A stretch of DNA of 3,913 bases from a virus (Duplodnaviria; Heunggongvirae; Uroviricota; Caudoviricetes), in IMG/VR virus record IMGVR_UViG_2684622669_000022, positions 1 through 3,913 of that record; one strand, 5' to 3'. Positions 1 through 3,913 of this stretch are shown in pieces. The position numbers were made by a program, and so were the translations under genes. Below the pieces are notes generated by a model, which saw only the letters and a program-made list of their open reading frames with translations, searched no databases and was not told the origin of the DNA. How positions within the stretch are numbered: position 1 is the first letter of the stretch; each line of letters starts with the position of its first letter.

Positions 1-171
1 ATGCAACAGTTCGCTATTGCAGGGGCGGCATCGGTTCGCCCTTTCAACCCGATTTTATCGGTACAGCATTCACGAAAAAATATTTTAACCGGAGCAGACT
101 TTAAACAACCAAGAATGAAAAGTTTGCTCGAAAAGCTTTGGGATATTTTGAAACAACAAGGCCGTCCATGA
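1..171 (+). CDS. cIII: Small protein (56 aa), probable CIII-like lysogeny regulator (FtsH/HflB protease inhibitor family)
   Basis: Frame 1 is open from ATG at 1 to TGA at 169-171; it is absent from the ORF track only because it is below the size cut-off. Translation: MQQFAIAGAASVRPFNPILSVQHSRKNILTGADFKQPRMKSLLEKLWDILKQQGRP. The N-terminal MQxxAIAG and C-terminal SLLE...LxDILxQxGxP resemble lambda CIII as I recall it (MQYAIAG...ESLLERITRKLRDGWKRLIDILNQPGVP). Its position upstream of the recombination genes matches the lambda pL order. The window may truncate an upstream extension. Confidence 0.45.
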   Translation: MQQFAIAGAASVRPFNPILSVQHSRKNILTGADFKQPRMKSLLEKLWDILKQQGRP

Positions 172-338
172 GTTTTACAGATAACTGGTCAGACGAAGAA
201 TTCATTCGTCAGATGAAAGAATTAATCGGTAACGAAGGAGATATTCATGTCACTTGCAACCACAGTGAAGGAGAGCAAGTTACAGAGACGCATGTACACG
301 CAGCAGGCGTTAATGTATCGCCAGAAGGGAGATCGTGA
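168..338 (+). CDS. Hypothetical small protein (56 aa), in the position occupied by kil/gam in lambda
   Basis: ATG at 168 overlaps the upstream stop as ATGA (168-171), suggesting translational coupling. Open to TGA at 336-338. The ORF track starts it at an upstream TTG (138), which I consider less likely. No recognisable motif. Confidence 0.45.
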   Translation: MSFTDNWSDEEFIRQMKELIGNEGDIHVTCNHSEGEQVTETHVHAAGVNVSPEGRS

Positions 339-425
339 AGGTGTTCGCGTATTTTTAAATGCGGCAAAGACTGAAGTATTAAATCAGCGTTATTTCCTTG
401 GGCCATGTCCATTCTGAGGTGAATT

Positions 426-1133
426 ATGGATTTGAACAAATTCGATGAGCCATTCAGCCCTGAAGATATCGAATGGCGAATACAGCAAAGCGGTAAAACA
501 CGCGATGGCAAGGTGTGGGCTATGGTGCTGGCTTATGTCACGAACAGGGCAATCATGAAACGCCTGGACGATGTTTGCGGCAAAGCAGGATGGCGCAATG
601 AATACCGCGATATTCCCAACAACGGAGGCGTTGAATGCGGCATATCAATCAGGATTGATTCCGAATGGGTAACCAAATGGGATGCTGCTGAAAACACGCA
701 GGTAGAAGCCGTCAAAGGTGGTCGTTCCGGCGCAATGAAGCGCGCTGCCGTTCAGTGGGGAATCGGTCGGTATCTGTATAACCTTGAGGAAGGTTTCGCA
801 CAAACATCTCTCGATAAAAAGCAGGGGTGGCACAGGGCAAAACTGAAGGATGGAACAGGATTTTACTGGCTCCCTCCATCGCTGCCGGGATGGGCAATCC
901 CAGCATCAGATAACAAACCATCACCAGAAAATACCAACCAGAAATCTCCATCGGTTGACTGCGAACAAATCCTGAAAGACTTCAGCGATTATGCATCAAC
1001 AGAAACTGACAAGAAAAAACTCATCGAGCGTTATCAGCGTGACTGGCAATTAATGGCTGGCAACGAGGAGGCGCAGGCTAAATGCGTTCAGGTAATGAAC
1101 ATCAGAGTTAACGAACTAAAACAGGCGGCATAA
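426..1133 (+). CDS. Rad52-family (Sak-like) single-strand annealing recombinase
   Basis: 235-aa ORF with Shine-Dalgarno GAGGTG at 416-421. It contains the block AVKGGRSGAMKRAAVQWGIGRYLY, which matches the conserved KRAxxxFGxGxYLY signature of phage Rad52-like annealing proteins, and an upstream GxxGW motif. It sits directly before ssb, as is usual for phage recombination modules. Confidence 0.8.
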   Translation: MDLNKFDEPFSPEDIEWRIQQSGKTRDGKVWAMVLAYVTNRAIMKRLDDVCGKAGWRNEYRDIPNNGGVECGISIRIDSEWVTKWDAAENTQVEAVKGGRSGAMKRAAVQWGIGRYLYNLEEGFAQTSLDKKQGWHRAKLKDGTGFYWLPPSLPGWAIPASDNKPSPENTNQKSPSVDCEQILKDFSDYASTETDKKKLIERYQRDWQLMAGNEEAQAKCVQVMNIRVNELKQAA

Positions 1134-1640
1134 ATGGCAAGCAGAGGCGTAAATAAGGTGATTATCCTTGGTCGGGTAGGACAAGACCCGGAAGTTCGAT
1201 ACTCACCATCAGGAACAGCGTTCGCTAACCTGACAATAGCCACGTCAGAACAATGGCGAGATAAAAATACTGGCGAGCAAAAGGAATTGACTGAATGGCA
1301 TCGTGTTGCTGTATCCGGGAAACTGGCTGAGGTCGTGGGGCAGTATGTGAAAAAAGGTGATCAGATTTATTTCGAGGGAATGCTGAGAACCAGAAAGTGG
1401 AAAGACCAGTCAGGGCAAGACCGTTACACAACCGAGGTTCATGTCGGAATTAATGGCGTGATGCAAATGCTTGGCGGCATTGGCGACAGCAAACAACAAG
1501 CAGCCAGCAGGCAATCACAGAAGCCACAGCAGCAATCATCACCAGCACAACACAACGAACCTCCGATGGATTTTGACGACGATATACCCTTTGCACCAGT
1601 AACTCTCCCCTTCCCTCGTCACGCTATTCACGCAATTTAA
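1134..1640 (+). CDS. ssb: Single-stranded DNA-binding protein (phage SSB) with a 15-residue extension after the DDDIPF tip
   Basis: N-terminal OB-fold region ([23 protein letters not shown]...[15 protein letters not shown]...[19 protein letters not shown]...MQMLGG) is near-collinear with E. coli SSB. A short Q/S-rich linker is followed by [11 protein letters not shown]. The start ATG directly abuts the upstream TAA (1131-1133). Confidence 0.95.
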
Positions 1641-1642
1641 TC

Positions 1643-1647
1643 AGGAG
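1643..1647 (+). promoter_or_regulatory. Shine-Dalgarno (AGGAG) for the 1654 ORF
   Basis: AGGAG lies 6 nt upstream of ATG 1654. Confidence 0.6.
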
Positions 1648-1653
1648 AAAATC

Positions 1654-1950
1654 ATGCCAGCGCCTCTGTATGGTGCGGATGACCCGCGCCGCTGTTCCGG
1701 CAATTCCGTATCGGAGGTGCTGGATAAATTCAGAAAAAACTACGATCGAATAATGTCTCTACCGCAGGAAACGAAAGAGGAAAAGGAATTTCGCCACTGT
1801 ATATGGCTTGCAGAGAAAGAAGAACGCGAGCGAATTTACCAGACATCAATCCGACCATTCCGCAAAGCCACATATACCCACTTCCCTGAATATATCGACC
1901 CGCGCCTGCGTAATTACCGCTCACGCTATGGCGCTATCAGTAATGACTGA
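1654..1950 (+). CDS. Hypothetical prophage protein (98 aa)
   Basis: ATG start with a good Shine-Dalgarno. Lys/Glu/Arg-rich sequence with no motif I recognise. Co-oriented and tightly packed within the operon. Confidence 0.7.
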
Positions 1951-1960
1951 GGAATTTACC

Positions 1961-2125
1961 ATGAGAGGACTTGCATACAATCCCGGCATTCTTCCGGAAG
2001 AAATGATTATTCGCCAACGCGTAAAGCCAATGCCATCGAGAGAGGAATTGCTTAAGAGAAATTCTTCTCCGTCAGTGAATCAAAACAAATATCTGAATGC
2101 GATGTGGCGGAGTGGGAAGAAATGA
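1961..2125 (+). CDS. Hypothetical small protein (54 aa)
   Basis: ATG at 1961 is preceded by GAGGA (1949-1953) at 7-nt spacing. The ORF track extends this frame back to 1808, but that extension overlaps the 98-aa gene and has no ribosome-binding site. Its stop overlaps the next gene's ATG as ATGA (2122-2125). Confidence 0.5.
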
Positions 2126-2640
2126 AACGAATGACACTAATTGAGATGGATGGATTTCTGAAAGGTAAATGCATCTCATGTGATTTAAAGGTTAACGAAA
2201 CAAATGCTGAATATATGGTGCGTAAATTTGCTGAAGCTGAGGCCAAGTGCGCGGCGCTGGCAGCGGAGAATGCGGGGCTGAAGTCTGGCGCTATGGACGA
2301 AATCAAGGTTATCAACCGTGGAGGGCAGGCATATTGCGTAAAAGATGGAGTGCAAGTTAATCCCATGTATGCAAGAGGGTGGAATGACTATCGCGCAAAG
2401 TTTCTGCAATCAGACACCCCAGCCACCGATGCTTTCCTGGCTGAAGTACGAGCGCAGGGCGTGGATGCTGCTATAGAAGCTGCAAAAAATCTGGTGGCCC
2501 AAGAATATGAGTATAAGGATTTCAAAGCGGCGCAGAGTGATTGCTGTATGCACCCTGGTTCAGACCTGGTAGGGAAGGTTGAAATGACTGAGTGGTTAGT
2601 TGACTTTGCTTCCCAGCTTCGCAAAGGAGTGCGGTCATGA
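2122..2640 (+). CDS. Hypothetical prophage protein (172 aa, several Cys residues)
   Basis: ATG 2122 is preceded by GGAG (2109-2112). The ORF track begins at GTG 2104; I prefer ATG 2122 because of the ATGA overlap with the upstream stop. Contains CISC, YCVKDG and DCCMH; no family recognised. Confidence 0.7.
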
Positions 2641-3305
2641 GCAACATCGATAAACGCGCATTACGTCATAGCGCAGAAAGCATAATCGGCATTCTGGAAA
2701 ACATTGCCGGGTTCGAACCATCTGATATCGACGGCGACTCTGTAGAGCTCCGCTTTGAAACTGAGGACGGTTTCGATACTGGTTGTGACGTTAGCATTGT
2801 TGACCAGTGCCAGAAAACCGCTGATGTAGTTCGGGCGCTGCTGGATGAGCTGGAAAGAAACCAGCAATACATCAAACGCCGCGACCAGGAGAACGAGGAT
2901 ATTGCGCTAACGGTAGGGAAGCTGCGTGTTGAGCTGGAAGCCGCAGAGAACAACCTTATTGATAGTGAGTGCCATGTTGCTGAACTGGAAGAAGCGCTAC
3001 ACGATAAGCAGGCGTTACTTGAAGCATCAGAGAAGCGCATAGCAGAACTGGAAGCCGAACTTGTAAGCCAGACTTACAAGTTGAACGAGCTGTCGGGCAA
3101 CTCTCCGGTAACTCCGGATGGTTGGATAAGCTGTAGTGATCGAATGCCAAGCGAAGAAGATGTTTTGGTTTATTGCTCAGACACAAAAGAGCAGATGGTA
3201 GGGTTTCACAAAGGTAAAGGGTTATTTCAATTCTTTTACATGAATGGTGTTGAGGGGGTATGTGAGCCGTCACACTGGATGCCGCTACCAGAGCCTCCAC
3301 TTTGA
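2637..3305 (+). CDS. Ea22-like coiled-coil protein with a DUF551-like C-terminal domain
   Basis: ATG 2637 overlaps the upstream stop as ATGA and is preceded by AAGGAG (2624-2629). The protein has three parts: an N-terminal domain, a central Glu/Leu-rich heptad region (LDELERNQQ...AELEEALHDKQALLEASEKRIAELEAEL), and a C-terminal module ending in HWMPLPEPPL. That ending resembles the DUF551 tail of enterobacterial prophage Ead/Ea22-like proteins as I recall them. Confidence 0.75.
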   Translation: MSNIDKRALRHSAESIIGILENIAGFEPSDIDGDSVELRFETEDGFDTGCDVSIVDQCQKTADVVRALLDELERNQQYIKRRDQENEDIALTVGKLRVELEAAENNLIDSECHVAELEEALHDKQALLEASEKRIAELEAELVSQTYKLNELSGNSPVTPDGWISCSDRMPSEEDVLVYCSDTKEQMVGFHKGKGLFQFFYMNGVEGVCEPSHWMPLPEPPL

Positions 3306-3389
3306 AAGCGAAGCTTATACATATCTTTTACATCAGCAATCTATTGTTAATCTCCAATCAATGTTACGTTGTCATCTCACTCATGCTTT

Positions 3390-3394
3390 GGAGG
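3390..3394 (+). promoter_or_regulatory. Shine-Dalgarno (GGAGG) for the zinc-ribbon ORF
   Basis: GGAGG lies 7 nt upstream of ATG 3402; it is the best consensus match in the window. Confidence 0.65.
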
Positions 3395-3401
3395 TAGTGA
3401 T

Positions 3402-3581
3402 ATGTCTTGTCCAAAATGCGGTTCTGGAAATATTGCAAAAGAAAAAACAATGCGTGGATGGTCTGGTGATTATGTGTGCTGCGATTGCGGATACAACGAC
3501 TCTAAAGACGCATTTGGAGAGCGTGGTAAAAACGAGTTTGTTAAAATTAATAAAGAACGCGAAGGCAACGAAAAAAGCTAA
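3402..3581 (+). CDS. Small zinc-ribbon protein (59 aa; CPKC ... CCDC)
   Basis: MSCPKCGSGNIAKEKTMRGWSGDYVCCDCGY has two Cys pairs about 20 residues apart, followed by a Lys/Glu-rich tail. Strong Shine-Dalgarno. The ORF track starts it at TTG 3369, but ATG 3402 has the ribosome-binding site. It is the last gene before the terminator and xis, the position of ea8.5 in lambda. Confidence 0.7.
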   Translation: MSCPKCGSGNIAKEKTMRGWSGDYVCCDCGYNDSKDAFGERGKNEFVKINKEREGNEKS

Positions 3582-3645
3582 TTTATTTATTCATATATTA
3601 ATACAATGTAACCAATATTCGAATTGAAGAACTGAAAGAACACCA

Positions 3646-3668
3646 AGCCGCCTGATGGCGGTTTTTTA
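3646..3668 (+). terminator. Rho-independent terminator (GC stem, UGAU loop, T-tract)
   Basis: GCCGCC (3647-3652) pairs with GGCGG (3657-3661) around the loop TGAT, followed by six T residues (3662-3667). The reverse strand has no T-run after the hairpin, so it should act only on + strand transcripts. Confidence 0.6.
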
Positions 3669-3712
3669 TTGCCTGATTTGCAGGTTCGATTCCCTATTCG
3701 GAGATAGCACTC

Positions 3713-3913
3713 ATGCAACACGAACTACAACCTGATTCACTGGTTGATTTGAAATTCATCATGGCTGATACTGGCTTTGGTAAAACCTTCATCTATGACC
3801 GGATTAAGTCCGGAGACCTGCCTAAAGCTAAAGTTATCCACGGGCGAGCAAGATGGTTATATCGTGACCATTGTGAATTCAAAAATAAGCTCTTAAGCCG
3901 CGCCAATGGGTAA
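3713..3913 (+). CDS. xis: AlpA-family excisionase / phage DNA-binding regulator (Xis)
   Basis: 66-aa ORF with GGAGA (3700-3704) 8 nt upstream. LVDLKFIMADTGFGKTFIYDRIKSGDLPKAKVIHGRARWLYRDHCEF fits the AlpA/Vis-type winged-helix pattern. It lies at the distal end of the early-left operon, where xis precedes int in lambdoid phages. Confidence 0.8.
   Translation: MQHELQPDSLVDLKFIMADTGFGKTFIYDRIKSGDLPKAKVIHGRARWLYRDHCEFKNKLLSRANG

Follow-up and report, generated by a model that had tools for sequence, protein, structure and literature searches.

A modular coiled-coil protein of the EaE/HkaH/Oad2 family encoded in the early-left operon of a P22-like prophage

Relation to Oad2 and other described proteins

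HK446 gp27, named Oad2, was described in a July 2026 bioRxiv preprint as an inhibitor of the abortive-infection nuclease OLD of phage P2. It relieves the toxicity of OLD and abolishes the defence provided by it, is pulled down together with OLD, binds it directly and blocks the cleavage of tRNA by the OLD tetramer; expressed from a plasmid, Oad2 was sufficient alone (10.64898/2026.07.10.737580). According to the same authors Oad2 is related to P22 EaE, a homologue from HK75 which is 54% identical to Oad2 shows no OLD inhibition, and gp33 is sufficient to trigger P2 OLD (10.64898/2026.07.10.737580). Here we describe a gene of the same family, located at positions 2122 to 2640 of a stretch of 3,913 nucleotides (nt) of viral DNA (IMG/VR record IMGVR_UViG_2684622669_000022, positions 1 to 3,913), the whole of which is called the window in the following. 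The gene encodes a protein of 172 amino acids (aa).

Further described proteins resemble this one in position or build. P22 EaE (P22gp32), along with HK620 HkaH and HK97 gp37, is its positional homologue in the order abc2 - orf56/DUF2737 - eaE. EaE and our protein have in common the coiled-coil core and a ten-residue stretch running into (V/M)RAQ, but EaE carries another N-terminal module and other cassettes. A P22 prophage with a deletion from eaC to eaE gave no viable particles, which is not gene-specific evidence (PMC11016777). Lambda Ea22, which is oligomeric (PMC10834534), and the Ea22 variants of Stx phages are encoded in the early-left 'ea' region, too, and they are mosaics of a short N-terminal region, a coiled coil and a portable C-terminal domain. 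Some relatives of our protein carry the Ead N-terminus. The protein itself has no match to the Ead_Ea22 profile (PF13935) at E<=0.1, the Ea22-type gene of the window being the one at 2637-3305. YfdS of the cryptic prophage CPS-53/KplE1 resembles our protein in the N module and in the first part of the coiled coil, and both prophages have a TorI-like xis adjoining dsdC. Behind the coiled coil YfdS runs into DUF551, whereas our protein runs into a helical domain with a conserved 16-residue stretch.

The initial annotation had stated that the protein could not be placed in a family. This is wrong, for the sequence matches make it a near-certain member of the EaE/HkaH/Oad2 family, phrog_614. This family was the best match (1.1e-55, aa 1-171 on profile positions 27-210 of 214) and also the best full-length family for HK446 gp27 (8.3e-53) and HK75_28 (1.2e-60). 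In pairwise comparisons the protein was 47% identical to gp27 over 138 aa (E 7e-32), 49% identical to HK75_28 over 121 aa and, via two conserved stretches, 37% identical to P22 EaE over 82 aa (E 9e-10). Matching genes found by tblastn in phage genomes are annotated as EaE, eae-like and hkaH. The order abc2 - DUF2737 - gene of this family, with an ATGA overlap, is common to HK446, HK75 and P22; gp27 of HK446 comprises 175 aa and lies directly 3' of the DUF2737 gene with a 4-nt overlap. Between gp27 and HK75_28 we found 54% identity, equal to the figure given in the preprint, which identifies the genes meant there (10.64898/2026.07.10.737580).

Our protein and Oad2 both match phrog_614 over their full length, and in an Erf/Abc2 locus both genes lie behind the DUF2737 gene, which they overlap in ATGA. 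Both proteins contain LAAENAG(L/M), the conserved 16-residue stretch and the tail QLRKG. They differ in that our protein lacks a coiled-coil stretch of 21 aa (three heptads), and in that neither its middle cassette (aa 55-98) nor its C cassette (aa 113-162) is related to that of Oad2.

Searches with Pfam (none at E<=0.1), NCBIfam and PADLOC gave no match for the protein, and a search with its C-terminal 77 aa returned only 31, mostly fragmentary proteins, so that little was gained. PGAP names WP_497753459.1, which is 93% identical to our protein by tblastn, a 'YfdS family phage-associated protein', because the N module is common to YfdS. Positions 168-2467 of the window match HK75 at 97.6%, from which it had been assumed that aa 1-115 are those of HK75_28; the pairwise identity given above ruled this out. 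The family is already known and abundant, and its members are mostly annotated as hypothetical. Our protein adds one cassette combination to it.

The gene and the modular build of its product

The open reading frame (ORF) runs from ATG 2122 to TGA 2638-2640, as seen in the ORF listing and in the sequence, and the ATGA overlaps at both of its ends described in the initial annotation were confirmed in the sequence. Likewise present are the motifs listed there, namely CISC (aa 17-20), YCVKDG (aa 71-76) and DCCMH (aa 140-144), and an Ala-rich stretch of 17 residues (aa 37-53). According to the ORF listing the frame is open further 5', to GTG 2104, and GGAG is found at 2109-2112, upstream of ATG 2122. 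We take ATG 2122 as the start because the homologues begin with MKQM(S/T)LIEMDGF.

The gene is real and widely conserved and not a chance ORF. Of 8,000 candidates more than 7,800 scored as homologues, and 842 cluster representatives were found at E<=1e-3 in the exhaustive library. Several assemblies of Escherichia albertii encode exactly this 172-aa protein. Partial gene matches occur in 1,101 of 5,426 complete E. coli genomes, with at least 80% of the gene in only 20 of them. A disruption of the frame in close relatives was not seen; at 96% nucleotide identity it is intact. Relative to these 96%-identical relatives there are 11-13 non-synonymous and 8 synonymous codon changes, which is an elevated share of non-synonymous ones. 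In the two conserved islands the major-allele frequency is 0.82 at third codon positions and 0.97-0.98 at first and second positions, and 7 peptides are encoded by 28 DNA variants. This variation of third codon positions indicates that selection acts on the protein, and it rules out that the islands are recombination linkers kept at DNA level only. The exception is the tail of the gene, where a Shine-Dalgarno constraint at DNA/RNA level is evident. An Rfam scan of the window gave no RNA family, and a promoter scan revealed neither an internal promoter nor a promoter-like site near the gene.

When close and distant relatives were aligned and identity was profiled over 150 cluster representatives, the protein proved to be a mosaic of a constant scaffold and two variable cassettes. 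The scaffold consists of the N module, the coiled coil, the helix with the conserved 16-residue stretch and the tail FAxQLRKG. The features of the gene are the following:

2122..2640, + strand: coding sequence of the 172-aa modular coiled-coil protein of the EaE/HkaH/Oad2 family (phrog_614)
2122..2235, + strand: portable N module, aa 1-38, present in about 57% of the 150 representatives
2236..2283, + strand: coiled-coil core, aa 39-54, with a 15-residue motif, 70-84% identity over the 150 representatives
2284..2415, + strand: variable middle cassette, aa 55-98, about 35% identity with a cassette-type distribution; contains YCVKDG
2416..2463, + strand: conserved 16-residue island, aa 99-114, 70-87% identity; start of helix 1 of the C-terminal domain
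2464..2604, + strand: variable C cassette, aa 115-161, common to about 20% of the representatives; contains DCCMH
2605..2640, + strand: conserved tail of 11 residues, with the Shine-Dalgarno sequence AAGGAG at 2624-2629 and ATGA at 2637-2640

The N module is identical to that of Oad2 at 33 of 38 positions. It contains the YfdS-type motif MxxxxxEM(D/E)GFL(K/R)GKC...NETNAEY, and aa 3-46, comprising the N module and the start of the coiled coil, are 73% identical over 44 aa to YfdS of E. coli K-12. The N module is found in HNH- and Acb1-carrying relatives, too.

In the coiled coil L46 and L53 occupy d positions and the nearly invariant N50 an a position of the heptad. A conserved polar Asn at a fixes the register and favours parallel coiled-coil oligomers of low order. 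With a single register anchored at L46/N50, 88-93% of the a and d positions are hydrophobic in our protein, Oad2 and two further relatives (P0034 and P0045), and the coiled coils of relatives differ in length by exactly 21 or 28 aa, i.e. three or four heptads. Judged by this register, the predicted coiled coil of our protein is continuous and heptad-true.

The AlphaFold2 (AF2) monomer model of the full-length protein reached a mean predicted local distance difference test (pLDDT) score of 63, with beta strands of low confidence at aa 62-79. When aa 96-172 were modelled, a three-helix domain resulted (pLDDT 88.7, predicted template modelling score 0.74), in which the helix at aa 100-128 exceeded a pLDDT of 85. 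Helices 1 and 3 of this model are antiparallel, so that the conserved helix start and the tail would be packed as a base and the variable cassette would form the tip. Foldseek gave nothing at E<=0.001 for the full-length model against the PDB, and fold searches with the C-terminal domain gave generic helical matches only. A sequence search against solved chains yielded no match for either of the two proteins searched, and a sequence search of solved structures listed T4 fibritin alone (E 1.5). The part concerned is a stretch of 11 residues behind the coiled coil (aa 64-74, window 2311-2343), which is identical to the fibritin foldon hairpin RDGQAYVRKDG at 8 of 11 positions. We take this likeness as no more than a lead: the PDB-wide E value of 1.5 is not significant, the pairwise value of 3e-4 holds only for a tiny search space, and the position of the foldon core Trp is occupied by Gln.

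Possible functions of the protein

The operon which encodes our protein also holds Abc2 and a homologue of the OLD trigger gp33. The two proteins compared in the preprint, gp27 and HK75_28, have the N module and the coiled coil in common and differ in both cassettes. As the HK75 homologue is inactive, the specificity should lie in the cassettes. Our protein shows no alignment to gp27 beyond aa 112 and a gapped, weak one over aa 55-95. Its cassettes are not those of Oad2, which suggests that its effector is probably not P2 OLD; we predict from the sequence that it does not inhibit this nuclease and has another target instead.

By analogy to Oad2 we tentatively propose that the protein is expressed early, is oligomeric and uses its cassettes to bind a protein of the host or of a prophage, the likeliest partner being an immune effector. 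The coiled coil would make the protein oligomeric, while the conserved helix and the tail would be the base of an antiparallel helical domain with the variable cassette as its tip. Through the cassettes it would recognise a single protein encoded by the host or by a resident prophage. Most probably this partner would be an immune effector triggered by the recombination and anti-RecBCD functions of the phage itself, and once bound it would stay inactive, as Oad2 blocks the tRNase activity of the P2 OLD tetramer. Translation is coupled to the upstream DUF2737 gene and, via the Shine-Dalgarno sequence in the tail codons, to the next gene.

A hint of an anti-defence scaffold that is independent of Oad2 is provided by a relative from Enterobacter cloacae (HED5661350.1, P0191), which has a Pfam match to Acb1, an anti-CBASS 2H phosphodiesterase, in the middle slot (32.1 bits, cutoff 27). 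This Acb1-like domain contains two HxT motifs, HLT and HVT. It is carried by the same scaffold, with an N module 76% identical to that of our protein, both conserved islands and the tail. In our protein, by contrast, the slot is filled by a short cassette without enzyme signature.

A more far-reaching possibility, which we regard as doubtful, is that the EaE/Oad2 scaffold is a general plug-in platform for anti-defence in temperate phages of enterobacteria and that the variant described here neutralises an immune system yet to be identified. Such a platform may offer two exchangeable slots on a constant base made of helices and of an oligomerising coiled coil, each slot taken by a binder of an immune protein or by a whole enzyme such as the Acb1-like domain of P0191. 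The immune system would sense gp33, Abc2 or Erf; candidates are an OLD-family nuclease other than that of P2 or a retron. If this platform existed, the cassette combinations of E. coli prophages, which run to thousands, would amount to a list of inhibitor specificities. If the identity of a cassette determined which immune protein it binds, a very common prophage gene family would become a readable source of anti-defence specificities, which would help to explain which lambdoid and Stx-type phages establish in which strains. Taken alone, the gene is nothing out of the ordinary among the accessory genes of P22-like early-left operons.

Several points weigh against the proposed role as binder of an immune effector. 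The sole functional datum for the family is one preprint on a protein that differs from ours in both cassettes, and the homologue 54% identical to Oad2 is inactive. Lambda Ea22 and YfdS, which are of like architecture, have been associated with lysogeny, oxidative stress and the initiation of replication and not with defence (PMC10834534, PMC4776307, PMC3105296). The confidence of the AF2 monomer is low for aa 1-98, the packing of the C-terminal domain into base and tip is inferred from the topology of the model and not from coordinates, and PADLOC and the structure matches gave no functional information for our protein. Finally, the 84 related loci counted below include many near-identical prophages, so that these counts are not independent and are to be read as descriptive.

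Alternatively it might be that the protein modulates the choice between lysis and lysogeny in the manner of Ea22, as an oligomeric coiled coil with a C-terminal domain for binding a regulatory or stress factor of the host, without any link to immunity. It has the three-part build of lambda Ea22, which forms tetramers (PMC10834534), and its gene lies in the same early-left 'ea' region. Furthermore, phrog_368 connects its C-terminal part with proteins whose N-terminus is of the Ead type, and the Pfam Ead_Ea22 domain was found in 5 of the 150 representatives. We nevertheless consider this unlikely, as our protein itself lacks an Ead_Ea22 match and the only biochemistry within phrog_614 is immune inhibition. 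Such a role moreover denotes a phenotype rather than a mechanism, and might be the activity of an immune-effector binder seen from another angle.

The gene upstream offers another explanation, according to which the protein is a partner or adaptor of DUF2737: the N module would bind the 54-aa product, and the pair would act on recombination or on the control of RecBCD. Of the 41 loci with an N module, 39 have the DUF2737 gene immediately upstream and overlapping in ATGA, against 0 of the 43 that lack the module, and the order abc2 - DUF2737 - EaE is conserved from P22 to HK446. This linkage may, however, merely reflect a mosaic boundary inside the gene, behind the N module. YfdS of K-12 has the N module and follows yfdR instead of a DUF2737 gene, and Oad2 alone was reported to be sufficient (10.64898/2026.07.10.737580). 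A partnership with DUF2737 therefore appears improbable.

Still less probable, in our view, is a modulator of host physiology which acts from the prophage state like YfdS, i.e. in oxidative-stress tolerance or by inhibiting DnaA-dependent initiation. It is suggested by the PGAP name of the 93%-identical protein, by the N module, which is 73% identical to that of YfdS, and by the published phenotypes of yfdS and yfdQRST (PMC4776307, PMC3105296). The similarity is confined to aa 3-46, however, and the C-terminal domain of YfdS is DUF551, to which our protein has no match. In the work on yfdQRST DnaA was bound by YfdR and not by YfdS (PMC3105296), and the gene described here belongs to the repressed PL operon with no promoter-like site nearby.

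The junctions with the neighbouring genes bear on a further proposal, that of a complex with the downstream Ea22-like protein. At the 5' junction ATGA 2122-2125 overlaps the stop codon of the 54-aa ORF 1961-2125, and at the 3' junction ATGA 2637-2640 overlaps the start of ORF 2637-3305. Among the 84 related loci the downstream junction is GTGA in 62 and ATGA in 20 (82/84). The tail codons CGC AAA GGA GTG embed AAGGAG (2624-2629), 7 nt 5' of ATG 2637, so that the codons of the conserved tail LRKG(G/V) also serve the next gene as its Shine-Dalgarno sequence. GGAG is found in all tail variants of the 84 loci, non-homologous ones included, and the codon of the first Gly is always GGA; part of the conservation of 'RKGG' is consequently that of a ribosome-binding site for any gene that follows. 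Translational coupling on both sides, as proposed in the initial annotation, is supported by these data. The overlap as a sign of a specific complex of two proteins is not, since the junction is kept whatever gene follows and ATGA occurs at 168-171 as well, which makes it a general operon feature. Coupling is a portable property of the junction and does not indicate a dedicated partnership with the Ead-like gene. The latter is a frequent but not an obligatory neighbour: in the 78 loci with enough downstream sequence it was the next ORF in 38, lay further downstream in 28 and was absent from 12, and it is missing from HK446 and HK75. A different Ead-like gene comes after that for the identical 172-aa protein in another genome of E. 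albertii.

The Cys/His clusters in which the initial annotation had seen possible metal ligands are not conserved in the family, either. We found no conserved CxxC or Cys/His pair. Over the 150 representatives C20 is identical in 6%, C142 in 13% and H144 in 17%, and the conservation of C17, C43 and C72 merely tracks that of their modules. CISC is replaced by CIPR, CIPS or CIPC in relatives with more than 90% identity. DCCMH is confined to one C-terminal cassette, and only its first Cys recurs there. The lack of a conserved ligand pair leaves the metal-binding idea unsupported. A metal-binding protein of fixed stoichiometry in complex with the downstream Ea22-like protein, for which the start-stop overlap with its embedded Shine-Dalgarno sequence, the 38 of 78 loci with an Ead-like gene next and the common module pool of the two proteins could be quoted, is the least probable explanation, given the unconserved Cys and His residues, a junction that is kept irrespective of what follows, the identical protein with a different downstream gene, and HK446 and HK75 without an Ead-like gene although Oad2 works alone from a plasmid (10.64898/2026.07.10.737580).

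Operon and surrounding genes

The window is the early-left (PL) operon of a P22-like/lambdoid prophage, in which the gene for our protein follows the recombination and anti-RecBCD genes. The genes form a single co-directional block of small genes on the + strand:

1-171, + strand: cIII-family ORF (phrog_550, 1e-22)
168-338, + strand: homologue of HK75/HK446 gp33 (phrog_2123, 4e-40, score equal to that of HK75_33)
426-1133, + strand: Rad52/Erf-type annealing protein
1134-1640, + strand: SSB
1654-1950, + strand: Abc2 anti-RecBCD gene (PF11043, 4.3e-62)
1961..2125, + strand: DUF2737 gene, 54 aa (Pfam DUF2737, 1.2e-28), homologue of P22 orf56 and HK446 gp28
2637..3305, + strand: Ead-like gene, 222 aa (Ead_Ea22 1.3e-21 for the N-terminal part and coiled coil, DUF551 2.9e-18 for the C-terminal part)
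3402-3581, + strand: zinc-ribbon ORF, 59 aa, with four Cys (phrog_2945, 1.7e-31)
3645-3674: terminator-like hairpin, the only strong one within the window, 3' of 3402-3581
3713-3913, + strand: TorI-type excisionase gene, the last gene of the window

The product of the DUF2737 gene is 72% identical to P22 orf56, and that of 2637-3305 is 66% identical to P22 EaD over 53 aa. ORF 1-171 matches the cIII PHROG yet occupies the position of kil in HK75, and its end overlaps the gp33 homologue in ATGA 168-171.

The ORFs 168-338 and 247-417 on the + strand encode 56 aa each in different frames and overlap by 92 nt. They belong to separate PHROGs which are both annotated as 'recombinase' (phrog_2123, 4e-40, and phrog_1723, 4.5e-34), and gene callers pick the one or the other, depending on the genome. 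Either both are genes, or one of the two PHROGs was built from mis-called ORFs.

In some near-identical prophages an extra gene for an Rv2179c-like 3'-5' exonuclease is inserted between ssb and abc2 (7968-8516 in locus L088, 2968-3516 in L001 and 2971-3519 in L002); the window is without it. The zinc-ribbon ORF 3402-3581 showed weak, sub-threshold matches to Lar restriction-alleviation proteins (Pfam 7e-5; 23.4 bits, cutoff 28.6).

The excisionase gene 3713-3913 is 100% identical by tblastn to a gene annotated as torI in E. coli W. In the loci L088-L091 it adjoins dsdC-dsdX-dsdA, with no integrase at that end, and both site and layout are those of CPS-53/KplE1. The E. albertii prophages which encode the identical 172-aa protein adjoin dsdC-dsdX-dsdA, as does CPS-53/KplE1 in E. 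coli K-12.

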